Assembly: GCF_000315625.1 (NCBI RefSeq)
Contig: NW_005434591.1
Location: 307,895-371,894, forward strand
From: Guillardia theta CCMP2712
Taxonomy: Eukaryota; Protista; Cryptophyta
Reading direction: 5' to 3'
DNA: 64,000 nt
Within the stretch, counting starts at the first letter, position 1; each line of letters begins with the position of its first letter. Made by a program: the position numbers and the translations under genes. Positions 3,878-64,000 of this stretch are shown one piece after another. A model generated the notes under the pieces. That model made no database searches and was not told where the DNA came from. It worked only from the letters and a program-made list of their open reading frames with translations.

Positions 3878-4213
3878 AGGCCCTGACCCCTGTGGAGTTT
3901 GACCCCAAGTGATGTGACTGCCTCGTAGATCGCCAGCGTCCTCCGTCGCTGATGGGGATGTGGACAAGAGGTGATCTTTCTCCTCCTGTCTCCTCCTGTC
4001 TCCTCCTCCTCCTCTCGGTTTCCTTGCTTTACCCTGCCATGCAGCAGCGGTAGCGAAAGGAGAGCCAACGGAGATAGAGGAGCGAACGTGAGAGTGACAA
4101 GGCTGGTGCCGCCATGGCTGATGGTGGAGCAGGGAGGCAGAGGACCCAACGGGGTGAACCAGACAGAGGCGCTGGCATGGCACGGGCTGGAGATGAGGAA
4201 GCTGAACGACGGT

Positions 4214-4253
<40 letters not shown>

Positions 4254-4329
4254 TACTGACATTCATAGCAGGAAACGTGTCAGACACTTCTGGTCATTCT
4301 CACGTGATTTCCTTTTGAGCCTGAGAGGA

Positions 4330-10246: not shown

Positions 10247-10279
<33 letters not shown>

Positions 10280-10324
10280 TGGCGGTGACTGTGATGGTGG
10301 CAGCTGTTGTTGTTGGTGGTGGGG

Positions 10325-10405
<81 letters not shown>

Positions 10406-16599: not shown

Positions 16600-19500
16600 T
16601 CCCTTGCTGGTTATCATGTTCGAGCACGTAGGGAGCTGTTGATTCCTTGTATGGACGAGGACGGAGGAGGCCGGAGTTGCGAGGCTGGTGATGAGAGGCT
16701 GGAGTGAGAGAAGATGAGAATGTCTCGACGCCACGTGGTGCAGATTCTGCAGGTGAGCTGCTGCTGAGTGAGCTTGTGGGGAGGACCTGACTGACGAAAC
16801 AAAGGGTCTGGTCTTGCTGTCCTTCCTTCTACTTGTGTCAGGTGAAGGATGTTGCATGTTCGCGTGAGATGTGAAGGGTCGACAAGGAGTCTTGTTGTAA
16901 CAGACTCATTTTGATCTCGCATGTCAATCTGATGTCTCAACCTGATACATCAATCTGATATCTCAATCTGATGTGTATTCGATCTCAAAGTGATATTCCA
17001 ATGGGATATTTCAATGTAACACCTGGTTCCAGCGGTTGATCGTCATGTGATCGTCGGCTTTGAAGCTCTGGGGACGGTAAGGAGGAGGACTAAACTTGTG
17101 TGGAAATCTGAACATGCCGTGAAGATCCATGTCTATCAAACTTTCAACTTCTCCCTCCTCGCCGGAAGCTTTCAGTCATTGTCAGCCGGCGCGTCGCTAC
17201 AAGTCAGCGTCAACGACAACATGTCAAGAGTCTTGTCGCTACTCCCGTTGTTGACATGGAGGTGAAGGCTGGGAGAAACCAACGTGAGGCTGTTGGACAG
17301 CTTCAAGCTCCAACTCCCTCAGGTACCCCCTGCTCCTGCTTCCGCTCCCGCTCCCGCTCCCGATCCCGCTCCTGCTCCTGCTCCTGCTCCTGCTCCTCGA
17401 TCCTGCTTCCCAATCCTTCCTCTCCCTCCTCCTCCTCCCTCACTTATCTTACTTCTTCTCCTCACCCCACTTACCTGTTGCGCCATGCTCCTGCTTCATG
17501 CGGCTTCCCCTGTGACGTGACTTGGTGTGACTCGCAGAACTCCTGGCCGTCTGATGTAGCAGAGAATCCGTTGCTCATGGTGAGACATGCTCTCTGACAT
17601 GCTGGGAGAGCTGACGCGTGCGGAAGGCCATCGACTCTGCCAGTTTACAGCAGATTCCTGCAGGATGCAAGCCGTTCGGACCTGTGAGGCTGAGAGGGGA
17701 GGAAAGGAGGAGGAAGCGAGGGGGGGCTGGGAAGGGGGAGGAGAGAGAAAGGGGGTATGGGGAGTATGCGAAGTGAGGGAAATAGGAGTTAGGGACAAGG
17801 AGGGAAGGGGAGTGGAGCGGAGAGGAGGGGCGGGGAGTGCTGGAAGTGACATGGCGCAGGTGTGGTTGATTTCTCCTGCTATTGGTCTGAAGGCTTCGGC
17901 TGTGGTCAACCTTCCACTCATCAAGTGAGTTTGTTCAAGGAGTGTCGGCACTGACCGTCTCATGCAGCTCGAGCTCACTCAATCTTCTCTTGGCGCCTTT
18001 CATGTATCCTCGACTTGTTCTTGTTCCGCACCTCCTCTTCCCTTCCCCTCTTTTCTTCCCTTCTCTTCCCTTCCCTCTCTTCTTCCCTCTCTTCTTCCCT
18101 TCCCTCCACCGTTCCCTTCTCCTCTTCCCTTCCCTTTCCTTCGTTTCCTTCCTTGTTCTCCCCCTCCTTGTCCCCAGCTTTCCTTCCTCGCTCGACTGAG
18201 AACGGACGTCAGGCTCTTGAATCGTTCCTCCGAATGGCAGAGGATCGGCGTGTGGCAGAATCAGGTTGCCCTCCAACCCCCCTCCTCTGAACTTGCTGTA
18301 CTCCTCCTCCTCTTCCTGCCGCTGCTGTTGCTCCTACACCTACTCCTACTCCTCCTCCTCCTCCTCCGCGTAATGCCTTCCATCCTCCAGTCATCCTCCG
18401 CCGTCTCTACGACTGCGGACGCTCTCGGAGTCTTTGGGGTGAATCTCCAGAGGGGTAGGAGGGAAGTTGACCCTCCTGCAGGTCTTCAGCATCGACTCTC
18501 AGGTCGTTATCAGCGCCAACCCTCAAGACTCGACCAGCAACTCGCAGGTTGGAAAAGTCCTGCCCTTTCCCCTCCTCCTCCTCCTCCTNNNNNNNNNNNN
18601 NNNNNNNNNNNNNNNNNNNNNNNNNNNNNNNNNNNNNNNNNNNNNNNNNNNNNNNNNNNNNNNNNNNNNNNNNNNNNNNNNNNNNNNNNNNNNNNNNNNN
18701 NNNNNNNNNNNNNNNNNNNNNNNNNNNNNNNNNNNNNNNNNNNNNNNNNNNNNNNNNNNNNNNNNNNNNNNNNNNNNNNNNNNNNNNNNNNNNNNNNNNN
18801 NNNNNNNNNNNNNNNNNNNNNNNNNNNNNNNNNNNNNNNNNNNNNNNNNNNNNNNNNNNNNNNNNNNNNNNNNNNNNNNNNNNNNNNNNNNNNNNNNNNN
18901 NNNNNNNNNNNNNNNNNNNNNNNNNNNNNNNNNNNNNNNNNNNNNNNNNNNNNNNNNNNNNNNNNNNNNNNNNNNNNNNNNNNNNNNNNNNNNNNNNNNN
19001 NNNNNNNNNNNNNNNNNNNNNNNNNNNNNNNNNNNNNNNNNNNNNNNNNNNNNNNNNNNNNNNNNNNNNNNNNNNNNNNNNNNNNNNNNNNNNNNNNNNN
19101 NNNNNNNNNNNNNNNNNNNNNNNNNNNNNNNNNNNNNNNNNNNNNNNNNNNNNNNNNNNNNNNNNNNNNNNNNNNNNNNNNNNNNNNNNNNNNNNNNNNN
19201 NNNNGAGTCTTCTGATGATGAGAAGAAGGCTGAGGGATCGAGCGACACGTCGGAATCCTATCGACAATCCGAGGAGGAAGAGGAAGACGACGAGGAGAGG
19301 AAGACAGACAGTGCGGAGAGAGTGATGAAGGACAAGAGAAAGAAGGAGGAACAGGAGCAGGAGGAGGAGGAGGACAGGAAGGGGAGGAATGATGATAGTG
19401 ATGATAAGGAGGAGGAGGAGGAGGAGGATGGGTGGGTTAACGATCAAAGCAAGGATCAGAAAGCTTCAGCATCGCAGAGGTGAAGTGGCTGGTGGACTTG

Positions 19501-43581: not shown

Positions 43582-46500
43582 TCACACTTGGCACAAGAGG
43601 TTCTTAGCAAGGATCTCGTTTCCCCCTGCGTCTGACATGATCGCGAAGTCACCGTATGACGTGGATCGGACTCGTCCGGGAATCGGGCTCCATGAGGAGG
43701 ACACGTTGAGTTTGACGTCTCTCAGCTCGCCGCTCAGCAGGTCAATCACCCGAAGGTCTCGCCCGAAGTTGTCCAGCACGAGGAGCCCAGCTCGACTTGA
43801 GTTGAGGCACCTGCTGCCGAGGGCCCTCCAGAAGCTGACGCCAGCAGGATGGTTGACAGGGGAGGACGTGTTGAGCGTGGAGACTTCCAAGGATGTCAAG
43901 TTGAGCTTCCTAACCCTGCTGGCCTGGAACTCGATGACGAAAGCTGCTCCCTCCTCCTCCCAGACCGTCAGATCCCATGGGTTGGTAAACTGCGCTATCA
44001 ACCCCACCCCATCCTGAAGCCCAGCGATGCCGGAGCCTGCGAGGGTGGTCACTGTGTTCTTCGACAGGTCAATCATGCGGACGGAGTGCCCGGAGAACTC
44101 AGCGACGAGCAGCTTGCTCCCCTGTGACGTCAGCGCGAGACTACAGGGGCCCGCAAAGGTGGCGGCAGCGGTGGAGCCATCCAGCTGACCGAAGGCCCCG
44201 GAGCCGGCGATCGTCGATACGGAGCAAGAAGACAAGTTGAGGCTCCTGATGCGGTTGTTCCAGAAGTCTGCGATCAAGACCAAGCTCTTGTCGATCCCCC
44301 AAACTACATCGATTGGCCCATCAAATTTTGCCATGGCGCAGGTTCCGTCCTCATACCCTGACCCGGATGTCCCGGCGACTGTTGTCACTTGCAGTAGGGG
44401 CACGAAGAGCAAGCGGATCAAGCTGTTCAAGTAGTCGGCGATGACGACATACTGGCTGTCAGCACTGACTGAAATTCCGACAGGATTGGAGAAGCTCGTG
44501 TCATTCCCGGCGCCGTCTTGAGAGCCTGTCCGATGGTTGCCCGCGAGAAGTGTCTGGAAGCCTTGACTGAAGCACGAGCTTCCTCCAGGAAGCGACCAAG
44601 TCCCTTGGTTACACTGCGAGCACAACGACTGTCCCAGGCTGTCGCTAAACGTGCCTGACGAACATGCTTGACACGCTGTTTGAGCGTAAGAGCCAGCAAA
44701 GAAGCCGGCTTGACACGCCGAGCATGCCTCAGGGCCCTGAGAGTCTCGGTAGCTGCCAGGGGAGCAAGGCATGCAGAATCCTGAGGCGTTGGACTGAGCG
44801 GAGAAGTTTGACTCATAACCTGAGATGCAAGTGCACGACGAGCGGCTCTCAGTTGATATCATCCCCGCCGGACAAGCTTGGCAAGCCGAGCTGCCTATGG
44901 CACCCTTGTAAGTGCCATCTGGACATTTGACGCAGACCAAGGAGTCAGCTGGGAGGATTTGACCCTCAAAGCCGATCGGGCAGGTGCACGAAGTTCTTGC
45001 CGCGTTCGCGATTTTGCCGGTCTCACACTCGGCACAGGACGCGTTTCCCCAGTCAGACTTGTACTGTGTGCCATTGCAGAGCGAGCAGTTGGGAAAGTCC
45101 TGAAACCCAGCGTCGCAAGCGCAGGCGTACAAGGACGTGCTTCCTGGCATCGAAGAAGCATTCATTGGGCACCTTTCACAGGCATGGTTTCCGATTCCAT
45201 CCTTATATGTCCCCGTAGGACACGGGAGGCAAAGCATAGCGTCGGGATCAAAAGAGAATCCGGGAGCACAAAGACATTCGCGATAGCCCGGGGAGCTGCT
45301 GGAGTTGGCAGGGCAGGCAAGGCAAGAAGACGCTCCCGTGCTGTTGATGTAGGAGGAGTTGGGACAAGTCATGCACGATGAGGCGCCTGCCGCGTCTTGG
45401 AACGAGCCCGCCTCACATGGCGTGCAGCTCAAGCTGCCTTCACTAGCTGAATAACTTCCTTCCCTGCAGATATCGCACGAGCTTGAATCGATGTGTCTAA
45501 AGCCTTGCTTACACTTGCAGTCAAGCTCACTAGTACTCGCCGCATTCGAAGTCATGTTCTCGGGGCAACTAAGACACAAGCCAGATCCATTCATCGGCTT
45601 GAACTTCCCGGACGGACAAGCATAACATACAAGCATGGGACCTGCCTGACCTGATCCCGAAGAATTGTTGCTCCATAACTCCTCTCCCGAGCTGTTTGAG
45701 CCGTTTGAGCTGTTTGAGCTGTTTGAGATGTTGTTGGTGCTGTTGTTGCCTACGACTTCTAGAGAGCTGTTTGAGCTGTTTGAGCTGTTTGAGATGTTGT
45801 TGGTGCTGTTGGTGCCTACGACTTCTAGAGAGCTGTTTGAGCTGTTGTTGGTGCTGTTATTCGAGCCAGCTTCGATGGCCATGGTACTGTTGCCTGTTAA
45901 GAGACTCGTGTTATTGAAGCAACAACAAGGCAGCAGGAACAACTACCTGGATTGGGGTTGTCGGTGTATCCCATGTCGCAGATGCAATCGGTGTAGTTGG
46001 TGCTCGCTTGGAGGGACGTGGAGCCGGAGGGGCAGAGCTCACATTCCTCGAGTCGACCTCTGGTCCAGCTGTACTTCCCCTTCTCACATGGCAAACAGCT
46101 CTCACTCCCATTGTTGGGCTTGTAGTATCCTGGTTGACACGCAACGCACCCTCCCGACGGCTCACTTTCATAACCTGCTATGCACACGCATGCGCTCAAG
46201 TCAGCGCTGCCAGGAAGGGAGGTTTGGTTTGCCCTCGGACACGCAAGACATTGCGAAGGGCTGGAAGCAGCAGTGCCAGGACCATACTGTCCAGCGGCAC
46301 AAAGTTGACAAGGCAGAGAGCCGTTAGACTCCTTGTATGTGCCAGCAGGGCATTGGACGCACGAGTCATTCAACCCGTAGAAGCCTGGCAAGCAGAAACA
46401 TTGCTGGATACCCGTGCTTCCTGCCTCAGAAAGACTGTTGTCCATACAGTCCGTGCACTTAACAGCTGCGACGCTATTTCCATACTTTCCAGGGGGGCAG

Positions 46501-49500
46501 AGTAGACACTCCCCTTCTCCTACACTCCCCTTGTAGCTGCCAGCACTGCAAGCTGAACAAGACATGCCATCAGGACTGTAGCCTGCCAGACAGACGCAGT
46601 ATCGACGATCGAGAGAGGAGGTCATGTTTTCTGAACAGTTGAGACAAGCGATGGCTCCTGAGACGTTGACGTAGGAGAAATTCGAGCACTGAAGACATGA
46701 AGAGGCTCCGTCAGCATCTTGAAACGAGCCAGGGTCACAGCTCTGACAAGTGAGACTACCAGCAAGGGAAGCGAAGGAGCCTCGAGGGCAGGGAAAGCAT
46801 TCCTCCTTGCCTGTGCTGTTCTTGAACTTCCCTGCCTCGCACAGGCTGCATGAGTTGTCGCTCGCGTTGATTTGATACCCAGCAACACACTGACATTGTT
46901 GAAGGTCACTGGCTCCAGCCGTTGACTCGGCATTGGCCGGGCATTGCGAACAGGTCGAGACTCCATGCTGAGAGTTTGTGTTGCTGAAATGATTCGGAGG
47001 GCAGAGAGCGCAGGCAGAAGCAGCGCTGAGATTGGAGAAGCTGCCGTTGGGACAGAAGCTGCATTGAAAGTTCCCTACGTCCGCCTTGTACTTGCCGGCT
47101 GTGCAGGCGATGCAGGAGCCTTGGATGGACTCGTGTCCAACGTCACAGAGGCAGAGGGTCGATTTCTCCGAGAGGGTCGTCGCATGTTCCGGGCATGCGA
47201 GACAAGAGGAGCTGTTTGAAGCGTCGCTATAGGTTGAGTTTGGACATGGAGTGCAGGGATCTGTGCCGACGCTGCTCTTGAAGGTCCCGGGCAAGCATGC
47301 AGTACAATTCGTTCCATTCAGCTCATATCCAGCTTGGCACGAGCAGTTGCCAGCAGAAGAGCTTCCAGCTTGCGACGACACATGTGCTCCGGTGCATTCA
47401 GAACAGAAGGATGCCCCGAGATCTTCGTTGTATGTCCCAGCAGGGCATGCCTGGCATGGAAAATTTCCAGCAGAGCTCTTGGAGAAGCCGGCAGAGCAAG
47501 GCGCACACTTTTGATCGTCACCTTTGGAGAAACCAGCTGCACAGGTACAGTTGTCTACAGACACACTAGCATTCAATGAGGTTGAGTTGGCCGGACATTC
47601 TACACATTCTTCATCACCTTGACTCTTGTAAGTACCAACTGGGCATGCAACGCAGTCGCTGGATGACGAGGATTCGGTAAGGGTGTGAAACTTTCCTGGA
47701 GGGCATCTGATACAAGTTGTGGATCCGAGAGCCTCGGAGAATTTCCCTTGGCCGCATGGCAGACAGATCGACGAGTTGGTGCTGTTTGAAGTGAAGGTGT
47801 AGAACCCGGCTTTGCAGTTACACTGACCTGACCCCGGAGAGGAGGACCGATCGCTAGCACAATCGTCGCAGACAGAAGCTCCAGCACTTGTACTGAACGT
47901 CCCAGCCACACAGGGAGTGCAGGAATACGCACCGGAGGCAGACAAGTTACTGTACTTGCCTGCTTCACATGCTGTGCACTCTTGCGATCCATTCACAGGT
48001 TTGAAGGTTCCTGGAGGACAAGCACTGCAGTTCTGAGAAGCAAGCCCTGTGTATCCGGCAGAGCACACGCAGCTTTCAATCGCCTTGCTGCCTGGGACAG
48101 AGAATGAGTTCAGCGGACAAGCGACGCAGCGGGAGGAGGATGAAGAGGCTGTCTGACTGTTGTAAGTTCCTGCAGGGCACTGACTGCAGACACCCATGTC
48201 GAGACCCTCTTTGAACGTGCCTGGCTGGCATGCCATGCAGAAACCTGAGACATTACTTGTAAATCCAGGGGCACACAAGCAGTCTGCTGCCATTCTTGAG
48301 CCCTCATCGCTTGTGTTTTGATTCGAACCACAAGCAAGACAGTCGGAGTCATCCGCTGACCATTTGTAGAATCCCTTGGGACAGAACATGCAAGTAGAGT
48401 TAGCGACGCCTTGCATTTCTCGTTGCCTTCCACTCCCGCAAGTCTCTAAGTGGGTCAGTGTCACAAGCGAGACATTTTCGCGGTCTAGTTCTGCTGAGAG
48501 ACTGGCGTCAACTCGACCCGCATACGTTGAAGAGAAGTATCTTGGAACGAGAACAGAGAACGAAACATTCCTTTGCGAGTCAGATGCCGGCGATGCCATC
48601 CAATTTGTGAACATGTTCGACGACAAATCCCCTAGGCTGAGCAAAATTCTCTGAAACAAGAATTCCAAACCCGCATAGTTGACATCTTGGCCCAACGTCA
48701 CCTTGTACTGAAGTTCCACGATGTCATTTGTACAGGCTGACCTTCCGCCTATCGCGTAAAAGTTCTCCTGGCAGGCTGTACAAAATGAAGAACCTTCAAG
48801 ACTGAACGAGCCAGGAGGGCATGTAGAGCAATTCTCCAACGAGCCTATGCTTTCCTTATACTTGCCCGCACCGCATGCTTGGCATCGCCCATCGTCCTGC
48901 CGCAGGAATCCTCTCTTGCAGTCACAGGCACTGGCCGTGAGGGAGCCGAAGGGGCTGGTTCCATTAAATTGATCGCATGACTCGCAGACTCCATTGCCGC
49001 CCCCGTAGAAACCAGAGAAACAAACACAAAAGAAGGAGCCTGAGACAACAACGTCAGCTCACTGCCGTCTCGCTCCTAGACTACCTAAGGTGTTGTAGCA
49101 GAACGCGTCCTCTCCACATGGAGACTTTTCACACTCGTCAATATCCGAGCACAAGAACGAATCGCTTGTGCAGTAGCTGATAAACAAACTGCGATCAATT
49201 TGGGCATAGATCAACCTTAAATCACCTTTCAAACAGGCCTACAACAGGGTGACTGGCCATGTTGAGATTGGTCTGGTTGCCAAGTATGAAAATGTTTTCC
49301 AACTCCGCATCCGTCAAGGACATATTGTAGATGTTCAAGTCCTGCATGGTATGGTGAGCCAAATCTCGTTAGATCCTCTCCTACCTTGATTTCTCCTACA
49401 AAGGATTGGGAGCCATCGAATGCATTTCCAACAATACTCCTTGTTCTGCGGACAGTCCTTGGCAATATCTGCTCAAGAAAGTCAAGGGAAAGAACGAATG

Positions 49501-52500
49501 AGTATGCGATACCGTGTGATTCTGAGTGCTTGGAAGCTGAGAACCGTTTACAAAGAAAACAACTTGTCCATTAGGGCGCAAAGTAACAACATTCCAACTC
49601 CATTCATTGAGGCGAGCTGGAAATTCAGCAACAGCAATAAGTCCAGAGCAGCCGGCTTGAGGAATGACCTATCGGAAACAGATCTCAGTTGCGTGTTTCG
49701 ATTAACATTCGACATGCGAACCTCGAAGGTCATTCGTCTCAGCGCGTCTAAAGATAGTCTGATAACATCACCCTGTTGCTGCGATTCCATCTCAAGAATG
49801 ACCTGCTCAGACTCTTACAACGCGGACTACTGAAAGCAAAATGACCTGGTTGAAGCTAGAACAGTTCTTGCACTGGGAATGAGAAATGTTGCATGCAAGC
49901 GCAGTTTGATTCCGTTTCCACATCTGTAAGCCATCAGCATCATCATGATCCGACATAAGCCATCGGTCAGGCAGTCAAGTTTCAGACTTACTGAGTTTGG
50001 ATCGCTGCCTGTGGAAGCAACCACAAACTCTCCAAGAGCCTCGAGGTCGCAGGCTGACAGGTTCTGCTCATTGACCGTGGGCAACGGGAAGGGAAGAGGC
50101 TGTAGAAGAAAATCAGTAAAAACCTTCTTTCTTGCACGTGATACCTTGATCCTTAACGATATCGTGAGATCGCCTCCAATGTCTTGTGATATGTTGAACC
50201 GATCACCACTGCTGTGAGTGTTCCCTTGGTAAGATGCATCCTGCAGTCCCATCAGATTGAAGTAAACAAGAAGTGATAATGATCACTTTAGAGCACTCAA
50301 ATCCTGTTTTGCAAGCACAGTCTGACGCTCTTGTTGATCCAGCATCACTAAACAAAATCAGAAGGGAATGATAAACTTTCGAGATCTGGTTGTGCCTGAA
50401 AGACTTTTCCGGACAAGACCGGCATTGACCATCGTGGCTGTAGAAATTCTGATTACATCTACATTCGTATGACCCTGTAAGATTTCATAAGAAACCTTGA
50501 ATTCAAAGTGAGTAAAATTATTGACCTGGCGTGTTTATGCACGTAGCATTCAAAGAACAAGCATTGCCGCCATCACATTCGTTAACATCTACGCATGTTG
50601 TTTTGTTGTCTATCGACATCTCTGCCATGTATCCTCCCGCACAAGAACAATTCATCCATGATAAACTTCCCTCTGGTGAAATCAGTCCGCCCGGACATGG
50701 CGTGCAGGTGGGTCGCGATTCAACTGATGCCCAGAAATGATTTGCTGGGCAAGGCAGGCACGAGTCAAATCCCTGCGACAGTCCGTCAGATCGCAAGCTC
50801 AGCATCGAGAAACATCGACGGTACCAGCGAGGAACTTTTTCTTACCCTCCCGTCATCGCACACGCAGTCAGATGGTGAGGAGCTTCCAGCTGCACTCGTC
50901 GACCCCACTGGGCAAGCGACGCAGTAACTCTGACCGGACGAGGAGAAGGTGCTTATGGGACATTGGGTGCAATTCAAAGCCCCGCTGCTATTCGTGTATT
51001 TCCCACCCTCACACAGTTGACAAACGTCAAGCGTTGCCGGGTGATAGTTGTCATCCCCAAAGGTTCCGGGAGGGCAGGGGAGACACGACAGAGTCTCTTT
51101 CACCCAAAAGTACCCTGCTTCACAACAAGCAAGAGCATCAGGCCCAAAGGCAGGCCCTCCTGGACAGAGCTCAGAAACGTTGGCGGAACATGCGGTAGCT
51201 CCAGGTGTCGACCATTTCCCAGCTTCGCAACCTGTGCAGACTGTCAGGTTGTCCGTTCTGAAAGTCCCAGCTGGACATTCGACACAAGCTTGCTCAGGAG
51301 AAGTAATGAGCCCCTGGTAACCGGCGTTGCAGGTGCAACGATCACTGCTATTCTGACTGGAAGATGCAAAAGGGCATTCCAAACAAGCCGAAGCCCCAAC
51401 AGCAGGCGCGAACTTCCCTTCCAAACACATGAAGCAAAGGCCGTTTCCAAATTGACCAGCAGGACAGCAAATCTTAGATGAGATTTCCTGTTCAGAACAA
51501 TTGTACAAGAATGAAGATTTGTTTCGAAATGGAATGCCTCTAACAAAGACCTCAAGTGCTTCTTGTCCAGGGATCTTCCAGGTTGGATCTATTTCAACTG
51601 TATGCATGGGTGTTTCAACAATCAAGTATGCTTCTTTGACGTCAAGAACCACTCCGTCGTATTGGCCAAACGAAATCTTGAACAAGCTCCGATCCATGGC
51701 CTGTGCGGGAATGCTGGAAATAGCAATTGATACAGCAGAACCTCCGGAGACAGGGCCAGAAGAAGGCAAGACACCCATAATTGACGGCCATTGAAAGGCT
51801 GACAAAATACCGGCAGGTACAAAGTGTGCTCTGTTTATCGAGACTTCAATCTCAAGCGCAATAAGCTGTTCAGGACGGATATCAATCATGGGAAGGACTA
51901 CGATTGCACTCTTTTCCGTTATGACAGTGCCAAACACATCAAAGTATGCTGAACGAATTTCGAGGCCCCCAAGATCTGCTCGAAAGTTTTCACCTGTGAG
52001 TGTGATGGTCCTCGCAGAATCTTGTGATAAATCCACCGCAAAGTACGGAGGAGATGACATGTTCACAACTGGATCCAGGAAATAATCAAAGATGTTTGCT
52101 TTCATCGGACTTTGTGCGAACAATACGTTGTGAATGATGACTCCAACTGTAATATTGTCAACTTGAATGAAATCATGAGACGGGACTGCACAAACAACTT
52201 CATCTCGTGACTTCACTCGAGCGCTCACATTAACTTGGTCCCCAAATACACAGAGAAGAGTCCGATTTGACAATTCCTGATAGTCGTACAAATTTAAATT
52301 TTCAATTTGAACTGACAAGTTGTATCCTCCAAAATAGTTGCCTCCACGAGGAAAAATGGAGATGATGTTGCAAGGGCAGCCCAGAAGAATCAGTTCTTTC
52401 TCTGAGCGTTCATAATTGGCGATCACATTCCGTGTCAAATTCGTCATTTTCACATATCTCTGAACAACACAGAAGTCGTTTACTATTCTTGTGACCGTCT

Positions 52501-53024
52501 GATTCATGTCTGTTGCAGAAATTGTTGAACTCTCCTTACTTGAAAGTATGTTGAGAACATATATGGAGTTTTCAGCAAAACAAGTAGACTGAAACTCATT
52601 GGAACAGACGAGCCCGAGCTGTTTTTCGTTCTCATCTGCATGCAACAATCTAGTTGCTCCCAGCAGCACGTGCGCTCGCTTGAGTTCCTATGCTATCAAG
52701 TCAACCACATCAAACGACCTTGTTTCGGATGACAGGGTTTACTCACCTGCAATCTGATGTAGAGATTCGCATACGTCGATTCGTAACTTTGAAGGTTACA
52801 GCTAGCATGGAGTATGTTTTCAATGATAGCAAACTCACTGCGCACACTTGATAGCTGGCTCAGCACTGAGTTGTTCAGCCACGCTTGCTGGCACGAGGCT
52901 TCTTGCGCCTTTTGAGGGAACGTGACTGATGGATAAAATTGACAAACATGCTCACCTCTGCTAGACTGTACAGAGCAAAGAAGAAAACTACTATGGCAAC
53001 ATGATATTGACGATCACTGAACAT
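43582..53024 (-). CDS. Giant secreted Cys-rich protein: IPT/TIG domains, EGF, many ephrin-receptor-like (GCC2/GCC3) repeats and C-terminal NHL beta-propeller
   Basis: Signal exon MFSDRQYHVAIVVFFFALYSLAE at 53024. PSSGPVSGGSAVSI (IPT), CVDVNECDGGNACSLNATCINTPG (EGF), repeated CxxCPxGTYK, and NHL repeats TLAGSG..G.QDG...A.F..P. ORFs 50786-52669, 45897-48839 and 43582-45942 are assumed to splice into one gene. Confidence 0.8.
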
Positions 53025-53478: not shown

Positions 53479-56259
53479 ATGGATGGCAGCGACGTCGACT
53501 TCGAAGCAGATGCTGGTGAGCGATCAAGATAGAAGGAGGAGGAGGAGATGGAAGCAGCGGGGGGAGATGGAGGCAGGAGGAGGAGATGGAGGCAGGTGGA
53601 GGAGATGGCGGCAGGAGGAGATGGCGGGAGGAGGAGGAGAGGGAGGCAGGAGGAGATGGAGGAAGGAGGAGGAGGGAGAGGGAGGCGGGAGGAGGAGGAT
53701 ATGGCAGCAGGGGGGAGAGAGGCGGGAGGAGGCATGAGAGTGAGGCGGAGGAGGAGGATATGGCAGCAGGGGGGAGAGAGGCGGGAGGAGGCAGGAGATG
53801 GAGGCAGGAGAACGAGGAGATGCAGGCAGCAGGAATGGAGGCAGGAGGAGGAGGATATGGCAGCAGGAGGAGGAGAGGGAGGCAGGAGGAGGATATGGAG
53901 GCAAGAGCAGGATATGGAGGCAGGAGGAGGAAAAGGAGGCAGGAGGAGGAGGAAATGGAGGCAGGCAAGAGGTTGAGAGGGAGGCAGGAGGAAGAGGAGA
54001 TGGAGGCAGGAGGAAGAGGAGATGGAGGCAGGCAAGAGGTTGAGAGGGAGGCAGGAGGAGGAGGAGATGGAGGCAGGAGGAAGAGGAGATGGAGGCAGGA
54101 GGAGGATATGGAGGCAGGAGGAGGAGGAGAGGGAAGCAGGCAGGAGGAAATGGGGGCAGGAGGAGGAGGAGATTGAGGTTTTAAAGGAGCAGCAGCAAGA
54201 GAGAAACGGTGGGATAAGAAAATCTCGCGACTATTGCATTTGCCCTACCTTGGCATTTTTATCTCACGCTTCCTGAGAAATACGTCTTAGATCAATCATG
54301 GTGTTTGACATATGGAGTTGTATCTTCTTAGCTGATGATATTTAGGGTTTAGGATCATGAGTCTTACTTGCTGATAGGACCTGCTCACCAAGAAAGTGCG
54401 TCGAGCGGATCCAGTGTTGACTTCGAAGATGATTATGGCGATCAGCCTCATACAGGAGCTGTGCACCACAACGAAGACATGGTAGTTTTTCATTCTTCTC
54501 TCCCAGATGTCCAGCGTGGGTCTGACAGAGCTCACAGGGTGAGGGCTCCATCGGCAATGCTGTCAACGATTCTCTGCACTTAGACCGCATGGTTGCATGG
54601 ATAGCTTGCATTCAGATGGACCTGCAAGACGCATTGGAGGTTTGTTACAAGGCATCCAAACCTCTCTAGAATCTGACTGTTCTCCTCTATCAGGAGCACA
54701 AGAAGGAGGATCACAACGTGCGCGCACTGGTTCAGCAAATACAAGATCTTCGTGAGAATTTGGTTCCACGGCAAGTTCAAGCTTTAAACTGTTAATGCAA
54801 GGGGACGCCACAGTACGAGATTCATGGAGGCACCTTGAAACGAAGCAGAAGCATGCAGGTTTGTTTTCGAAGCATCATGCCAGCAAGCTTGTGAATGTTG
54901 CTCTGGGTCAGAGCGAATGGCAGAGCTCAATGAGAGGAAGAAATCCCTTCTAGAATTCAGGTAGGCGTCAACGACGCATGTCTAGATTTGATAGTTTTTC
55001 TAGAATGTTATCAGAACTTGTTCCCAAGAATTCTGACGTCGTTTCGTCAAGACAGAGCGGTATTTCACTTCTTTCTTTGTTGATGTTACTCCTGCCATGA
55101 TCATCCGTTGCTCAATCATTGGTTTAGTAGTCTAGATTCAGACTTACCATTTTAAGAACAACCCCCAACAAGACACATGCTTTGAACTGTGTTCTCATGA
55201 ATTTCATGTTGAACCTAATTCGTTTCCAGACACCATGTCAGGTGTGAGGCGAGACAGTGATTCGGTAGAATCACCTCAAGTAAGAATACCAATGTCCAGC
55301 ATTTCCGAGACTTTGGTGCTTTTGCTTAGAACCCTCTTCTCTATTACTGATTGTTTCATTCTTTCTGCAGACTGCGTATCTTCCAATATCAAGAGAATCG
55401 GTTTACGCCGCGTTTGCTGGAGTTGGATCAAGTGAAATGCGAGATTGATTTGAGGGACAAGGTTGACCTCACAATCAGGTTCCCCCATATCGAATCACAA
55501 CCAGGAAAACTTGGACTCAGAATCAACCGACAGCATCAGATCAAACAGGTTCAACCCTTTGTCACTACTATGAGTTAAAAACTGAATGACGATGGCAAGG
55601 TCTGTGAAACCAATCAGTTGGGCGAATGAGGAGACAGATAGAAGAAAGGTGAATGGTTTAGCAAGTCAAATACAATTTGAGATTGTTCACCTTTGTTAGC
55701 ATATCGACACGGTACTGAAGGGTGAGGAGATTGTAAAGGAAACCAAACCAGATATAGAGTTGGTGTACCCGGAAAAGATGGAACCCCTTGTTTCTCATGC
55801 TTCTGATCAGGTCACTTGATACTTTAGTTGGGCACAACTTAGGCTGCCAAACAGGTGGAAGACGGAGACAGAGGAAGCGAAGAAGAAATCTCGACTGACG
55901 AGGCACAATTCAGTGAAAGCAGCGAATCCATTGGGAGGACGAAGCACAACGATGTTCTAGAACGTTACAAGGAGCAAATCGCTCAACTTGTTACGGATGC
56001 CAAGTTCTTTCGAGAAGCAGGTTCCCTTTCAATCTCGTCGACCTTGATGGTTGACTATGTTGCAGGATGTGATGGCGAATCATTGCTCGACGAGCTCATG
56101 CAGCAATGCAGTTTTCTCCCGGATGAACAGGCAGTCAAAGTAGTTGTGATATTGTTTGTAACGCTCTTGCAGCATTCCGTCCGAATCGCACTGTCTGGCT
56201 TATTGTTTAGCCATGACAATGAGGAGTTACAGTCACAAGAGAAATCTCAGGACGAATAA
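53479..56259 (+). CDS. Multi-exon hypothetical protein, acidic/coiled coil; 3' end uncertain
   Basis: MDGSDVDFEADA followed by a GTGAG donor. Later exons include SGSSVDFEDDYGDQP and VEDGDRGSEEEISTDE... Confidence 0.45.
53530..54172. repeat. Degenerate GA-rich minisatellite (ggaggagatggaggcagg-type), intronic
   Basis: Directly visible repeated units. Confidence 0.9.
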
Positions 56260-56653
56260 AGTGGATCATGAGTCAGTCAAGTAAGATAGAAATGACATGG
56301 AATTTTGATGTTCATGGAAATTGTACGATTGACACACCTTGGTCACTCTCTGTTGACCTGTCGACATTAAATAAGAAGAGCAGCAAGGAACGTCTATCAG
56401 ATGTGTACCTTGTCGAATATCCTTGTCCTCCAACGTTGTCTCTCCTCGTCTTGCCGCCGATACTTACACATTCACTCTCTATCATTCGAACGATCCCCGT
56501 CACACTTGTTCTTGTTACGACCCTCTACACTTTCTCTTCTCTTTGTTTTCCTCCTTCTCTTCCTCACCTTCCATGCTCCTCGTCCTCTCTCCTCCACCAG
56601 CTCCTTCTCTTCCATGTACGCTTTCATCCTCCCCCTCACTTCCCTTCTTTGCA

Positions 56654-57037
56654 GATCCAGAGGTTGGAGTGCGGGAGCCGAGAGCGCAGCGAGGGTTCCA
56701 GGTGGAGGAGCATCAGCTTCTGAACATCTTGAGGCAGATGAGAGAGTACAAGAGCTTCGTGTACTACTTGTGCGAGCGAGACTCTGTCCGCAACCTCCTG
56801 CCGACCCTCCAGTCCAAGTTCGAGCTCGCGTCCAAGGCGCTGTCTCAGTTCCTGGAGCATCAGCGGAGGAACTTTCCTCGGCTTTACTTCGTGGAGGACA
56901 AGGACATTATTGAGATGCAGTACGCCTGCGTCAACAACCCCTCCTCCCTCCGCTACTACCTCCCGCTCATCTTTGAGGTGGCCGACCTGTCCTGGAGGGA
57001 GGAAAAGCCTTCTCAGGACGGGGAGGAGGAGAGAGGG
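56654..57037 (+). pseudogene. Isolated dynein heavy chain (N-terminal region 2-like) exon, truncated
   Basis: KALSQFLEHQRRNFPRLYFVEDKDIIEM matches the dynein L..KR..FPRFYFLSD..LLEI motif. Preceded by a pyrimidine tract and CAG acceptor. No motor-domain exons follow. Confidence 0.6.
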
Positions 57038-57400
57038 GACCCGCGCATGCAGCAGGTTCAGGTGCCGACAGGCGGGCCTGAGGCACCCGCAGGAAGGAAG
57101 GCAGTAGGGGGACCAGATCCGGCTCGTCCGCTTGATGGAGGGTATCATCCAGCCGACAGAACAGAGGAGGGGTCGAGAATGTCCAGGTCTGCTCACAGGG
57201 TAGAGGAGCGCTGCAATGTAAGAAGCTGGCCGTGGCGATGTAGTAGGCTGATACGCCATCCCCTCCTAGAGGTGTGAGTCCATCTCCTCCCTCCTGATAT
57301 ATAGGCGACGTCTGGCTCCCTGGCTTTTCCACACACACCGGGAATGAGCTGGTGCTGGACTTCACGGTGGTCTTCATGCCCACCATGGAGCTACGCTGAT
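57038..57400 (+). mobile_element. Possible relic of a non-LTR retrotransposon restriction-like endonuclease
   Basis: Stop-interrupted frame containing IGDVWLPGFSTHTGNELVLDFTVV, which resembles the GD...LDxTV core of RLE-type (CRE-like) elements. Confidence 0.35.
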
Positions 57401-57703
57401 AACGGAGTGGGATGGATGCGTGCAGGAGGCGGTATATGGGGACCCTAATTGCCATCATCTGCGTGCTCGTCTGTTTCGGCAGCGTCGAGCTCGCATGGGT
57501 CTTGCCGTCCTCCTGATCGCTGATCCTCGTTCCCCTGCTTGTCGTGGCCCATAGACTCGCTGGTGTGGTTGGAGTAGACTGAGGATTGCGCTGCCCGATC
57601 CCTTCTTGGGCGGACTCGGTGAGGCGGGTTTCGTTCGGTATCTCCCTCTAGCTTGCTCCTGTTTGTCCCTTCCACTTTTAAGTAAAACATCATTACCGCT
57701 GCC

Positions 57704-58858
57704 ATGGCCAAGAGAGCTCGAGAGCTGGTCGAGGAAGAGACGAATGCAGCTGTAGAAGAAGAGGCTAGGGGGGTGCAAACAAACGTCAACAAAGTAGATC
57801 AAGCCATCACTGATGTAGAGCAAGAGATCAAGGGAGTACAGGACGAGATCAAGGGAGTACAGGACGAGATCAAGGGAGTACAGGACGAGATCAAGGGAGT
57901 ACAGGACGAGATCAAGGGAGTAGTGGACGAGATCAAGGGAGTAGATCAAGTCATGGCGGATGTAGAGCAAGAGATTAGCCAGGCACAAGACCCCAATATG
58001 AAGGCTGACTTGATCATGAAACGAACGAAGCTTGAAGGTGAAAAGAATCGGCTTGCGGTCCGAGAGACACGTCTTCGAGATGACAAGAGACAGCTTCGGA
58101 ATGACAAGAGACAGCTTCGAGATAAAGAGGCAGGACTTCGAGATAAAGAGGCACGGCTTCGAGAGGAAACGAAGGAAAAGAAGCAGGCAGCCTTTACCTG
58201 GACAGAGTCAGAAGCTCGGCTTGACGGCATGGGCTTTTGCAAGGAGGACAAATACTTCCGTCTAGCTTGCTCTTACTTAAAGGGCACAAATGTAAACAGC
58301 GGAGAGCATCTTCTTCTTGTGATGATCATTATCCTGGGTGTGGTTCATGTGTACATGCACATGACGTCCAGTCCGGTGAAGAGTATCACGCCGTTGCAAG
58401 ACAACATCTGTCCCTTGCAGACGCGATACAATGATACTCTGTTGAGGCATTTTCCAGTGCCACCCAACATTACGGAGCCAGTCCAGCAGGAGCAAAAGCC
58501 GAGCCCCCAGAAGAACGATACCGTGCGGCCAACCCAGGATCAGAAGCAGCCAATCCAGGAGGAACAGAAGCCGCAGGCCCCCCCAAAGGAAGGGAATCAG
58601 TCTGAGACACGCCAGGAGGAGCAGAAGACTTCAACTGCAGATCACGAGAATGTGAACCAGAAAGAACAGAAATGGACTGTCTTCAGTTCGTTGCATCTTC
58701 CCCGCATCGACCTTGTTCGCCTGTCGGTCCCTGTCGGGACGCTTGCCATCGCAATCGCTTCTCGCGTCACCTACAACTCGATCATGCAGCGCCGTGCGTA
58801 CTACAAGAAGCTGAATGATGATTTAGATGCGATCATCAACAGAAAGCCGTTGTGGTAA
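57704..58858 (+). CDS. Intronless, apparently chimeric ORF: heptad-repeat coiled coil fused to a two-hydrophobic-segment, Q/P-rich protein
   Basis: 384-aa ORF with 21-nt repeats encoding EIKGVQD and LRDDKRQ/LRDKEAG. Abrupt change near 58318 to VMIIILGVVHVY...; AATAAA at 58879. Confidence 0.6.
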   Translation: MAKRARELVEEETNAAVEEEARGVQTNVNKVDQAITDVEQEIKGVQDEIKGVQDEIKGVQDEIKGVQDEIKGVVDEIKGVDQVMADVEQEISQAQDPNMKADLIMKRTKLEGEKNRLAVRETRLRDDKRQLRNDKRQLRDKEAGLRDKEARLREETKEKKQAAFTWTESEARLDGMGFCKEDKYFRLACSYLKGTNVNSGEHLLLVMIIILGVVHVYMHMTSSPVKSITPLQDNICPLQTRYNDTLLRHFPVPPNITEPVQQEQKPSPQKNDTVRPTQDQKQPIQEEQKPQAPPKEGNQSETRQEEQKTSTADHENVNQKEQKWTVFSSLHLPRIDLVRLSVPVGTLAIAIASRVTYNSIMQRRAYYKKLNDDLDAIINRKPLW

Positions 58859-58959
58859 ACCCGTTTTGCTAGTGTTGCAATAAAGTACGTTCAATATCTA
58901 CTCCCGGTGAGCGCGATGTATAAAGGGGTGGTTGGCTGGGCGGTGGGGTGTGGTGGGAT

Positions 58960-60640
58960 ATGGGGGGTGGGGCACGGTGGGCGCTTGCCGGCTCCTGCCT
59001 CCTGGCGTGGCTCGGGGGCGTGTCGGGGCAGGGCTTCATGCCGGTCCACGGGAGCATCAACGTGATGCCCACGGCTGCGCTGCACTCGGCATCGAGCGTG
59101 TCGTACGACTACGCCGCGCGGGTGTGGTCGATCCAGCTGACCTTCGACGCCGGGGTGGCAGGGGTGCCGTACGCGCCCTTCCTGCTCGACCAGCGGCGGG
59201 ACACGGGGCCGAGCCTCAACTTCCTCTCGGAGGTGGCGCCGTGGTGCGGGCTGGTGCGCTCCTACTGCTGCTTCGAGGACCTCCTCAACGGCACGCTCTA
59301 CTTCAACGACGCGCTGGCCTCCGCCGTCTCCGGGCTGGGCGCGTGCGCCTCGGCGCCGGGGGCGTGGGCCGCGGCGCTGGCCGACCCCTCGGCGTACGGC
59401 GGGGTCCGGCCCGCGGGCAACGTCACGTTCGACTTCGCGGGCAACACGCTGCGCATCCCGCACGAGCAGGCGCAGCTGTACGGGCGCGAGTACCTGGACC
59501 AGAACAACAACTACGTCGTGGACCTCCGCTTCCTCGCGGTGTTCCAGTCGGCGGCGGCGGGGGTGCTGGAGCTCGCATGGGTGCCGTACCAGGCCGTGCT
59601 GCTCCGCGACATCGACGGGCTCTTCGGGCGCTCGTACGAGGACGTGCGGCAGTGCGTGGCGGCGCCCTACCCGAGCCCGGCCGACTCCTTCTGGCTGGCG
59701 CGCTACGCCTCCCCCGCCTCGGCGGACAAGGTGTGCGAGTGGTACTGCAACCTGGGGCGCTACAGCTTCCCGCTCCACGCGGCGCAGGCGGAGAGGCTGG
59801 CCGCCCGCGCGGGGCATCGCCGTGGGGTACAGCCTGTGGCTGCTGATGAACACGACGGAGCTGTCGCGGGCGCTGGGAGCGGACGTCGTGCCGCGCAACC
59901 TGACGATGGAGTCGGCGCCGACGGTGCCGGCCTGGCTGGACTCGGTGGCGGCCAACATGAGCGCGGGCATCGCGGAGCAGGTGGCGAGCATCGCGGGGAG
60001 GGCGGTCGGGGTGCGGGCGCTGGCGGAGCTGCACAACACCCAGTACGCGCGGGAGTGGCGGGTCTACATGCACACGCTGAGGGCCGTGTACGAGCGGCTG
60101 AACCCCGGCAGCGCCGTGGCGGGGCTCGAGACCGTGTTCCTGCGGGAGAGCGCCTCGCAGCCGTACGCGTTCCCGCCCTGGCTGCAGCAGATGGGGGTGT
60201 TCGACCGGGAGGGCACGGTCGCGGTGGCGGACTACCCGGTCGCGAGGCGGTCGGGCCCGCGCGTGGGCCTGCAGCGGCGCGGCGGGCGGAGGCAGGCGCT
60301 GCCCGCGGCCCCCATCGACGCGGTGGCGATGGAGATGGTCGTCTTCCTCGACACGCAGGGGCTGACGGTGGGGGAGGTGGTCAACTCGATCTTCCAGGCG
60401 GGGGTGGCGATGGTGAACTCCACCTCGCTCCGGGGGCTGTGGGGGATGGACATCTTCGTGCGGGAGCTGACCGTGCGGGTGGAGCCCGTGGGGAGCCGGT
60501 TCCAGGGCGGCTTCCTGGTCTCCTTCCTCCTGCTCGGGGCCGCGGGGGCCGCGCTGGCGTGCCTGGGGTGCTACGCCCTGTCCGTCCCGCCCTACGAGCG
60601 CCTGCGCAGGGCTCCGGGCTCGTATGCAGACGCGGGTTGA
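58960..60640 (+). pseudogene. Intronless GC-rich type I membrane glycoprotein-like gene with one frameshift
   Basis: Signal peptide RWALAGSCLLAWLGGVSG, Cys-containing ectodomain and N-glycosylation sequons. The frame changes near 59790-59815 with no GT donor. C-terminal TM GFLVSFLLLGAAGAALACLGCYAL. Confidence 0.7.
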
Positions 60641-60700
60641 AATTCCGAGCGTATTTAGGGCGGGAGGCCGCGCCGCACCCCATGGTTGCTGGCGGCCGGT

Positions 60701-61105
60701 ATGTCGTACAGGCAGTCCTCGAAGCAGGTGGAGCGCCACAAGCACGTGGGCGAGCTGGACAACCTTCATCGCTTTGAGAGCGAGGCCATCGTGACGACCG
60801 TCAACGAGATCGCCGAGGGGGGGCTGAGGCCGCGGACGCAGCTGCTGGACGCCGCGGACTGCCACACGCTGGTGCGGGCCACGCTGACGCTGGGCGGGGT
60901 GGGCGGCGGCGGGGAGGATGGGGCGGGGACCGTGCTGGCCTCGGCGATGATGAAGGTGCCCGTGGGCGTGCCGAGCGGGGCGGACGCGGCGACCTCCGCG
61001 GCGCTGCTGTCGAAGATGCTCGGCCCCAACAGCGGCCTCTTCGCGGGGCACGAAGACGCGCGGACGGCGATGCTCCGGCACCTCCGCGGCCTGTTTAGGG
61101 TTTAG
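60701..61105 (+). pseudogene. Intronless GC-rich ORF running into telomeric repeats
   Basis: MSYRQSSKQVERHKH...AMLRHLRGL; the final codons and stop are supplied by the TTTAGGG array. Confidence 0.6.
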
Positions 61106-61149
61106 GGTTTAGGGTTTAGGGTTTAGGGTTTAGGGTTTAGGGTTTAGGG
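61094..61149 (+). repeat. Interstitial telomeric array (TTTAGGG)8
   Basis: Eight perfect Arabidopsis-type telomere units. Confidence 0.97.
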
Positions 61150-61189
61150 GGCCCCTGACAGAGGCAGGGGCCCCTGACAGAGGCATGCT

Positions 61190-62304
61190 GCTCTGCGGCG
61201 CGTAGGGAGAGCGCAAGAGGACCGGAGGAAGCTGCGAGCAAGAGGTTTGTATAGTTCAAACAGCTTTCTAAGCATGGTACTACAGTATGATGAGAGCGTT
61301 CGCAACCTGCTGTATCGGAGATCATGCCAATACACGCAGGGCGAGCGCTCTGGAGGCCACGTCGAAGAGGCCGCCGACCTCGTCGAGAGGGTGAAGAACT
61401 TCGCGAAGCGGTATCCTGGTAGTAGGACAGCTCATGCTTGCAGAGCTGAGGGGGGATGCACCCCCGACGCTATCGCTGAAGCCATCCGCTCAACATGTCG
61501 GCAGGCGAGACGCGACCTGTTTGAAGACTCTCTGAGGGAATGGAGCTCAGAGTCGAGAGCATGGTTTATACAACAGATGGAGGAGGCCAAGAAGCAGAAT
61601 GTCGAGACATACATCGGCACAGAAGGCACCGAGGGGACCTCCTTCATCTCCATGACTCTCCTGGGCATCTCCTCGATGTATGTTCGACAAGAAGACAAGT
61701 TGAAATCGAAGCTTATGGAGCTAGGTCTCATGGTAGACTCAGTCGATGGCACCTTACAGACCTGAGATAGCACGAGCAGACGACATCTCAGTCACCGTCT
61801 CCTTCCTTCGGAATGAAGCAGCCATGGAGCTATGGGAAGGCAGGAGAGAATACTGCATAGACGGCAGATCGTTCAGAGCCACAGAGGTGAGCATTGCACA
61901 TGACCGGTCCTTCAAGCTTCGAGCCAAGCGAGGACCTTGGGGCAAGGGAGGGAGCCTTGCCGAGCTATCACAGCTCTTAGCTCTTGGAGGAATGTCGACG
62001 GCCGACATAGCTCAGATCTATCGATTTCAGCTGCTCTCGCAATCTCTTGCAGCCGCAGAGGTACAACCACTTGCGGGCATGCTCGTGCAGGGTCCTGGGG
62101 GCAAGTACTGGCACTCTCCAGCAAAAAGAGCTGGAGTGGGTGCTCAGCTCGCCTTCGACGGCAAGTTGCGAGCAGACCTTGGCCTCGTTCAGAGAGAGCG
62201 AGGCGATGGAGGGGGTACATCTCACTCTCATCAGCGACGACGCCAAGCTCAGAGAGACGTTTGCAGTCGAGCTCACAGCCGACACCTTCGTTCCTAGTGG
62301 CTAA
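61190..62304 (+). pseudogene. Degenerate intronless ORF, possibly from a mobile element
   Basis: Overlapping ORFs 61247-61765, 61746-62297 and 62047-62304 read like one frameshifted protein; no splice signals or recognisable domain. Confidence 0.4.
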
Positions 62305-62771
62305 GTGACACAAAGGTTTTTCGGGTTTTTGCCGTTTTCTCACGGGCAAACCTTTAGAGGGCATTAAAAGGTGGGGTGGGGGTGTATGTGTACGGGTATA
62401 TTTGTATTACAAATGTACCGGTTCCAAGCTCATTCGGGGGGGTAGGGGTACTCGTCTGCCGAAAAAATGGCGCGCGGGCATCCTCCAGGAGGTGGGTGCA
62501 TAGCGTACTTGCCCGCCTTTGCCAGGATCCATTTGTCTTCACATGCACAGGACGTGATCATATTAGTGTAAATATGATTCAAAAAATCCATTTTCTTATC
62601 CTTTCCATCAGTTTTTGTCCAATGAACACGGTTTGTGAAATCGCCAACTCGTCTTCGATGCAACTGAAATGAACATTCTTGCACAGACAAGCAGGTAACA
62701 ACAGTCGAATATCGTTTAATGATATCAAAACTTATTTGATCATGCTTAAGATCTGTTAATTTGTTCTTCAA

Positions 62772-63060
62772 TTACGCAAAATTTTCCTTACAGCAATGTC
62801 GTGAAAAACAGTTCCTTTGCGTTCCAGGACCACACAATCCAAAAGGGCGCTTCAATGGATCGTTTTTGCTGCACTGGTAACAGCAAAAGGAAGTCTTGCA
62901 ACCATGTTTGTCCCTGCCACAGCATACCTTACACCTTACACGAGTTACTTTCGCTCATAGCGTTGTCGCTCTCAACTGACCCCTCTGGTTTCCAATAGTT
63001 TTCTGTGGGGGTATCCTTCCACATATGTGAATAGCAAATGGCAGTTGGGGTCTGGGGTGG
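62772..63060 (-). mobile_element. Relic C-terminal cysteine-rich domain of a piggyBac-like transposase
   Basis: Manual translation (not in the ORF track): RVRCKVCCGRDKHGCKTSFCCYQCSKNDPLKRPFGLCGPGTQRNCFSRHCCKENFA*, with an in-frame stop just upstream. Confidence 0.6.
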
Positions 63061-64000
63061 GTCAGACGGCTGGGAGCTGATTCAAATTGGTTGGGACCAG
63101 TTTAAGGGGGTAGGGTACTTCCTGGTAGCAAATAATTGTACCAACAGTACCATTTTTATGGTACACATAGAGTACTGTTAGGAAAACTTGTACCAAAATA
63201 GTTTATGCGGTACCTCCCCTGTTCAAACTATGATGCTTTGGACCCACCTGTTTCCCAGTGAAAGTCCCTTCTCCGATGGGGTCAAGTTTTGGACCCTACC
63301 CTGCCTCCGACCAACATAGACCACCCTTGTAGATCAGAGGGAGCTCTCAAGCCTTGCCCCTTCCCTTCCCTGGTTGCATATCCAAGGTTAGCAAGTGAAT
63401 GTTACGCAGACGTGACTCGTCTGCAGCAGGAGAGCTCAGACGAGGACAAGCAGAGGCAATCCTTGCAGAATCTGGTGTGAGCGCAGCAGTCTGAATACAT
63501 CTCTGTGATTGCAAACACATGTAAAGAGGGTTGATCATCATAGATTTTAGCAGCTTGAATAAGGAGTACTCTGCACGGACCGTCCGCTAGTGGCGCTGTA
63601 CGATGGATGACATTGACTCTCATGAGCAATAAGTAGGAAGTCATGAAGCATGTCACGGAGACAGCATGATCTATACTTATTTCATAGGAATCTGCTGCAA
63701 AGAGTCGGGCTTGAGGGCGTTCTGAGCAATATGCAAGAGTATTGCCAAGGCATGTAAAGAGTTTCAAGGAATACCAGTGCATTCATCAAATAGCAGTGAT
63801 GAGGTACCACATGAAGGCATGACTTGCAAATTGATTGCATGTCGTGTTCCATTTGATGACTTACAATCAAGACGCTTTTGAGCGACAAAACGATACCCCT
63901 TATAGCATTGTAAATCATATTTCATTTCCTTCACCTCGAGTCGAAGCAAGAAATTTTCAAGGTGCTGATATCTTTGTTTTGACTAGACTGACATGGTATC

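Follow-up and report, generated by a model that had tools for sequence, protein, structure and literature searches.

The genome of the cryptophyte alga Guillardia theta (GCA_000315625.1) has been reported to contain the major capsid protein (MCP, clade E03), Triplex2 and the maturation protease of mirusviruses (PMC10827195). These markers are reported at the level of the host and are not linked to the cluster described here; the text and readable supplements of PMC10827195 name no scaffolds. Polinton-like viruses (PLVs) are endogenous in G. theta, where they are present in several copies, and in other cryptophytes (PMC12220804); of the markers of nucleocytoplasmic large DNA viruses (NCLDVs), one has been recorded for G. 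theta (PMC5294986). Here we describe a locus in a stretch of 64,000 nucleotides of G. theta CCMP2712 (contig NW_005434591.1, positions 307,895 to 371,894, forward strand; hereafter the window). Positions 58318-61093 (~2.8 kb) hold a piece of a three-gene cluster, consisting of a small membrane gene, a glycoprotein gene and a gene for a protein of ~450 residues, which is followed by telomere repeats. The cluster is probably viral in origin. We cautiously favour, at somewhat better than even chances, that a broken piece of a large-virus cluster was captured at a break, telomere-healed inside its third open reading frame (ORF3) and rejoined to a host gene.

Like the endogenous cryptophyte mirusviruses, the cluster occurs in the same host species and is virus-like, gene-dense and composed mostly of unnamed genes; unlike those mirusviruses, it has no MCP, triplex, portal or terminase tied to it (PMC10827195). 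Its TATA-type spacers fit the Mirusviricota, which commonly encode a TATA-binding protein (PMC12768974). With the PLVs it shares the occurrence of several copies in the genome, but no capsid, packaging ATPase, integrase or pPolB was recognised in 10.7 kb of a related metagenome locus, L001 (PMC12220804). The locus also resembles giant-virus insertions in Acanthamoeba, which are partial, chimeric and unexpressed, with sudden GC shifts, proximity to telomeric repeats and no mobility genes. Those insertions have a subtelomeric bias, whereas here a short perfect array cuts a gene directly (PMC12210455). The ~50-bp perfect internal array and the flanking duplication are reminiscent of short interstitial telomeric sequences at double-strand breaks. 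These were defined in mammals against empty orthologous sites, whereas the flanks here are unrelated to each other and form a rearrangement junction (PMC2246262). Finally, virus-like DNA lies beside host-type telomeric repeats as in human herpesvirus 6A (HHV-6A), which integrates through viral telomeric repeat arrays (TMRs); HHV-6A carries its TMRs at its genome termini, but the array described here lies mid-gene and is absent from relatives (PMC4887096). The features of the cluster and of the array are:

58318..58858, + strand: 3′ part of ORF1, an orphan; hydropathy indicates two hydrophobic segments, and 4 sequons are present
58879, + strand: AATAAA, predicted poly(A) signal between ORF1 and ORF2
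58919, + strand: TATAAA, predicted TATA box, 41 nt ahead of the ORF2 ATG at 58960
58960..60640, + strand: ORF2, predicted type I membrane glycoprotein, GC content at third codon positions (GC3) 0.98, frameshifted near 59795-59810
60652..60657, + strand: TATTTA, predicted TATA-like promoter, conserved, 49 nt ahead of the ORF3 ATG at 60701
60701..61093, + strand: ORF3 stub, first 131 of ~450 residues
61094..61149, + strand: (TTTAGGG)8, all units perfect, with the G-strand directed outward from the fragment; internal in the assembly
61148..61185, + strand: 19-bp tandem duplication starting within the last repeat

The original prediction had read this region as a fragment of an endogenous large DNA virus, mirusvirus- or nucleocytovirus-like. 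A foreign, virus-like and broken fragment is supported because longer syntenic relatives, a gene-dense metagenome copy and conserved promoter spacing were found. The glycoprotein and a full-length ORF3 occur together in fused public gene models on two other G. theta scaffolds (P0006 and P0030). In ENA, Logan and JGI both proteins were found on equally long contigs (5367, 3702 and 23543), and their linkage is judged from this equal size. The metagenome locus L001 (10,750 bp), the single locus retrieved in two metagenome scans, contains nine unspliced ORFs and is 88% coding; its gene order (glycoprotein, ORF3, a convergent 210-aa gene and a lysine-rich 133-aa gene) is that of P0006. The motifs predicted in the window spacers (stop 58858, AATAAA 58879, TATAAA 58919, ATG 58960, TATTTA 60652 and ATG 60701) were all verified. 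In L001 the first spacer harbours ATTAAA followed by TATAAA, which lies 44 nt ahead of the ATG of the glycoprotein gene (41 nt in the window), and the second has TATTTA 48 nt ahead of the ORF3 ATG (49 nt in the window). A scan of GTDB genomes retrieved no related locus. Trees were mostly unresolved and pairwise identities were used instead. Six copies share 83-93% identity with one another but only 61-65% with the window copy, whose identity to L001 is 53%. Judged by these identities, it is a separate lineage, and a recent duplication of the other G. theta copies was rejected.

ORF3 lacks a stop codon of its own, and the first stop in its frame (61103-61105) falls inside the telomere array. 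A profile search of 1.84 billion representatives retrieved 13 relatives: two from G. theta, six from Hanusia phi, partly as fragments in several frames of one transcript, and five others. For a full-length relative, a confident structure model was obtained from a 9-sequence alignment (predicted local distance difference test, pLDDT, 82; predicted template modelling score, pTM, 0.79), in contrast to an earlier model from 2 sequences (pLDDT 33). Foldseek found no match to it with a template modelling score >0.14 in BFVD and PDB, and the best VIA-align hit (Z 6.1 over 63 residues) is at the level of common arrangements, which marks the fold as neither new nor known. The best scores in the ESM Atlas (0.83 and 0.80) are leads only. 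Sequence searches of Pfam, PHROGs, NCBIfam and PDB yielded nothing significant for ORF3, for ORF2 or for L001.

As had been claimed, the last ORF runs without a stop into eight perfect TTTAGGG units with the G-strand facing outward. Shuffled sequences contained a mean of 0.02 motif matches, and 0/100 reached the observed 8. TTTAGGG has been proposed as the ancestral telomere motif of cryptomonads (PMC3622300). One G is in register at the left edge of the array, and no degenerate repeats are found beside it. In the assembly, a short, perfect, host-type array has sequence on both sides, as at an interstitial telomere from a repaired break. For mammals, the insertion of short perfect arrays at breaks has been documented, in some cases together with deletion or duplication of adjoining sequence (PMC2246262). 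A telomerase repair scar is the best-fitting reading of the array and a likely one, and the 19-bp duplication is likely an end-joining scar. Elsewhere in the window, two telomere-like units with one mismatch (54341-54354) are probably due to chance or an old scar.

The base composition changes abruptly within the cluster. DNA from 58.9 kb onwards had been described as GC- and CpG-rich, and a composition profile of the window indeed places the change point at ~58925. ORF2 and ORF3 have a GC content of 72-73%, compared with at most 65.8% in any equally long stretch left of the change point, and a CpG density of 0.140 versus at most 0.091. Their GC3 (0.96-0.98) is the extreme of the window; long frames outside the cluster reach at most 0.88. 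Other marks proposed for the cluster discriminate less well. It is free of microsatellites, as stated, but the region from 45.9 to 53.5 kb equally lacks rows of tandem repeats. The lack of introns is weak evidence of foreign origin, because the window also contains intron-free host frames that are 657-1053 codons long. Of the three intronless ORFs with short spacers, the spacers were confirmed; three intact ORFs were rejected, as ORF1 is fused in frame to a host gene, ORF2 carries a frameshift and ORF3 breaks off at residue 131.

On the left side, the cluster is preceded by a patchwork of host DNA:

56573..57380, + strand: last exons of a dynein-heavy-chain-like gene, host context (DHC_N2, E=1e-14)
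57381..58317, + strand: multicopy host element on which many divergent contigs pile up; left edge approximate (loose end at 57381, X18)

No further dynein match was found among the scanned frames downstream of 57380, and the dynein-like host gene appears, from its sequence, to be truncated where the repeated DNA starts. The multicopy element includes the 5′ part (ATG 57704) of a coiled-coil gene family with 21-bp repeat units, which we take to resemble the Crinkler-like expansions reported for Guillardia. The frame of ORF1 is open from this ATG, spans 384 aa and ends at the stop at 58858, and residues 1 to ~205 of the fused product come from the multicopy coiled-coil gene. Contrary to what had been assumed, ORF1 is therefore not a free-standing gene but is fused in frame to the host gene at 58317/8. 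To the right of the array lies unrelated sequence:

61186..62301, + strand: exons interrupted by three short GT-AG introns; apparently from a host gene lacking its 5′ part; no Pfam family

Reads were compared with the window over 57200-61060 in four runs, X1, X2 and X18 (DNA) and X21 (RNA). In all three DNA runs, the match of the other host-gene copies to the window sequence ends after 58317, which confirms the predicted left boundary at 58318 as exact. X1 and X2 each contain a single contig extending from 58288 through ORF1 into ORF2 with zero differences; X1 may be the source of the window DNA. The depth of X1 and X2 ends at ~59900 and is uninformative as a negative beyond this point. X18 is a freshwater metagenome with the multicopy host element and pieces of ORF1 and ORF2. 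Compared to the window, it shows one difference in 215 in ORF1 and 93-98% identity in ORF2 (depth 2-5, errors possible), and 8 of the 11 listed differences are at third codon positions (P=0.009, at this same depth of 2-5). At low depth, this hints that the sample contains a host similar to Guillardia that carries a related insert.

The 3′ part of ORF1 has a host-like composition (GC 0.53, GC3 0.69). A small gene for a hydrophobic, glycosylated protein lies ahead of the glycoprotein in L001, P0006 and P0030, and in L001 its GC3 is lower (0.74 vs 0.90). No sequence match was found between the ORF1 3′ part and these three upstream genes. By position and similar build, it is likely the variable small membrane gene of the cluster.

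In the RNA run X21, of which ~6% was read, 34 reads were placed; first mates are on the + strand, so that the strand of transcription is unsettled. The depth was 1.3-5.3 over 58490-58876 with a peak at the 3′ end of ORF1, dropped from 5.26 to 0.12 after 58876, past the predicted AATAAA, and did not exceed 0.14 over ORF2 and ORF3. Low transcription of the ORF1 3′ end was the sole activity seen. No X21 read covered 58361-58489, and a fusion transcript of host and insert was not demonstrated by these 34 reads. Twelve putative RNA runs hold 0.18-0.23 of the words, approximately the share of ORF1, and were not counted.

ORF2 had been predicted to encode a glycoprotein with a signal peptide and a transmembrane segment. 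Its relatives (552-589 aa) have a C-terminal transmembrane helix, 5-6 N-glycosylation sequons and 8-12 Cys, and a signal peptide was judged by eye from the alignment. The glycoprotein character is thus upheld in the relatives, but the reading frame is not intact in the window: two anchors spaced 22-23 codons apart in 7/7 homologs are here separated by 31 nt, and ~35-38 nt are missing near 59795-59810. X2 agrees with the window across the frameshift up to 59851. The X1 contig has 22 unmatched letters past 59809, and in X18 two contigs depart from the window sequence at 59800-59801, which would fit an undeleted form of ORF2 in those samples. The same 16 bases at 59795-59810 encode plausible residues in both frames, which suggests that a deletion between short repeats occurred recently and that lines differ in it. 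In public G. theta CCMP2712 gene models identical to the window, both lesions are masked by predicted introns. GUITHDRAFT_144197, which corresponds to the window ORF2, bridges the frameshift in this way, and GUITHDRAFT_115379, which corresponds to the window ORF3, hides the breakpoint and reaches 449 aa only by splicing past the repeats into unrelated exons.

A viral origin of the cluster is suggested by its compact layout, its orphan-rich genes, the predicted type I glycoprotein, the TATA-like motifs and the presence of several divergent copies in one genome. If the cluster is viral, its most likely source would be a cryptophyte mirusvirus of clade E03, which is favoured because G. theta carries mirusvirus markers; a nucleocytovirus or a PLV are also possible sources. 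Several results weigh against a captured and healed viral piece. No viral hallmark gene was found among the nine L001 ORFs or the window proteins in Pfam, PHROGs and NCBIfam, and pattern scans of IMG/VR, which reach close relatives only, found relatives in 0/8. The only viral hint, a Herpes_teg_N match of the 210-aa neighbour in L001 (E=0.069, 132/183 profile positions), is below the cut-off, and this name is absent from the readable supplements of PMC12768974 and PMC12606086. The species-assigned relatives of ORF3 come only from Guillardia and Hanusia and are all cryptophyte cell sequences. Moreover, the ORF1 3′ part has no homolog (the search found only itself) and a host-like GC content. 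At the left junction, the short side comprises only 30 letters in X1 and X2, one below the bridging threshold, and at the right junction the internal position of the array is that seen in the assembly.

HK97 MCP, triplex 1/2, portal and terminase were not recognised in the window proteins or the nine L001 ORFs, which are fragments compared with general family libraries. Double jelly-roll MCP, A32 ATPase, D5, VLTF3 and PolB had no Pfam match in L001 or the window cluster, nor had PLV major or minor capsid protein, packaging ATPase and integrase/recombinase in the nine L001 ORFs. The sequence and structure searches expected to link the window proteins to viruses returned no viral family or fold (Pfam, PHROGs, NCBIfam, Foldseek and VIA-align). 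Longer copies, which had been anticipated to carry capsid or polymerase genes, do exist and have an uncut ORF3, but no capsid or polymerase gene was found. The assignment to mirusviruses or nucleocytoviruses therefore remains presumptive, with no hallmark gene and 0/8 in IMG/VR. In the literature surveyed, we found no paper naming these proteins and no passage describing the locus; the supplements of bioRxiv 10.1101/2025.04.19.649669 were outside the scope of this survey.

The restriction of the species-assigned relatives to Guillardia and Hanusia, the missing hallmark genes and IMG/VR matches and the long intron-free host frames in the window would also be compatible with a non-viral cluster, either a large mobile element or a host gene island specific to these two genera, with the break and the scar unchanged. 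We consider this unlikely. L001 is densely coding with short spacers, 0/9 of its ORFs reach a curated family, and no transposase or integrase was recognised. In addition, a type I glycoprotein beside a gene resembling a herpesvirus deubiquitinase would suit an enveloped virus, and the Hanusia relatives are split over frames of one transcript, as in decaying inserts. A different question is how the array came to lie inside ORF3. The original prediction left open whether a break was healed by telomerase or the virus carried telomeric ends; healing at a break agrees with our results, whereas virus-carried ends do not. A virus whose genome is bounded by its own telomeric repeats and uses them for integration, like HHV-6, could explain why host-type repeats abut virus-like DNA, and a mirusvirus is integrated subtelomerically in Aurantiochytrium. 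We rejected this origin, which is very improbable, because full-length relatives read through the repeat site at residue 131 and L001 has 0 core motifs (3.1 expected by chance). The full-length relatives lack the array, and HHV-6 arrays, unlike this one, sit at genome ends (PMC4887096).

The array could also be a true telomerase-healed chromosome end, with the sequence to its right added by an assembly join. It is perfect and faces outward, its flanks are unrelated, and the right junction is supported by the assembly alone. However, it has only 8 units, the runs of N in the window (9511-9610 and 18589-19204) are not near it, and the duplication that starts in its last unit would rather resemble a repair scar; such an end is distinctly unlikely. 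Slightly less credit still is given to the possibility that the repeats came with the right flank, as a former subtelomeric piece copied or fused by template switching. The region is pieced together from truncated fragments, the left side has no more than one base in register, and similar mosaics with short internal arrays occur in telomerase-negative Chlamydomonas (10.1101/2023.01.23.525193). On the other hand, the orientation of the G-strand makes the virus-like piece the proximal side, not the right flank, and degenerate repeats are lacking at the array borders.

The junctions and lesions are seen in the assembly, and from them we infer the order of events and the agents in the favoured history of capture and healing. 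A piece of a virus-like genome would have been joined by end repair into an already broken region, consisting of the dynein-like gene followed by the multicopy element. This insertion presumably occurred by end joining without an integrase. A break inside ORF3 may then have received telomerase repeats, as the short perfect array suggests, and the telomere-capped end would have fused to an unrelated host fragment, leaving the 19-bp duplication. A later loss of ~35-38 nt would have affected ORF2 in one or more lines. The promoters would be TATA promoters of the type used by the host polymerase, and the fragment would now be a broken relic without viral function. A more far-reaching version is doubtful: an undescribed large-virus lineage of cryptophytes, perhaps outside the curated mirusvirus families, with a new fold in the 450-residue protein, a recent insert that was cut by the host and telomere-healed, and a viral membrane gene fused to and co-transcribed with a multicopy host gene.

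Both endogenous viral debris and short telomere arrays at internal sites are familiar, and their combination is tidy rather than surprising. If the cluster is viral, the intact copies supply two markers, the genes for an envelope-type glycoprotein and for a 450-aa protein that can be folded, as well as conserved promoter motifs, for a cryptophyte virus of a cultured model alga from which so far only capsid-module markers have been reported. The junction would then record, at base resolution, the action of telomerase on viral DNA inserted in an algal genome.

Several other features of L001 were observed. The 210-aa gene with the weak Herpes_teg_N match (8901-9533, − strand) is syntenic in P0006. 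The region 4553-5073 is AT-rich and non-coding, flanked by G-/C-rich tracts like short inverted arms, and is a possible origin or small insertion. Three further ORFs are unannotated and have no family match: a 752-aa protein (2294-4552, + strand), whose Cys/His motifs by eye recall transglutaminase-like proteases, a Cys-rich 287-aa protein (1147-2010, + strand), and a fragment at 10147-10749 (− strand) that by eye resembles a kinase C-lobe. In the window, 62300-64000 is AT-richer and non-coding, contains dispersed motifs resembling GGGGTAGGG and lacks a Pfam match, possibly a transposon remnant. A large gene for a cysteine-rich surface protein with ephrin-receptor-like repeats and NHL occupies 43582-52507 (− strand); its exons reach 1053 codons.

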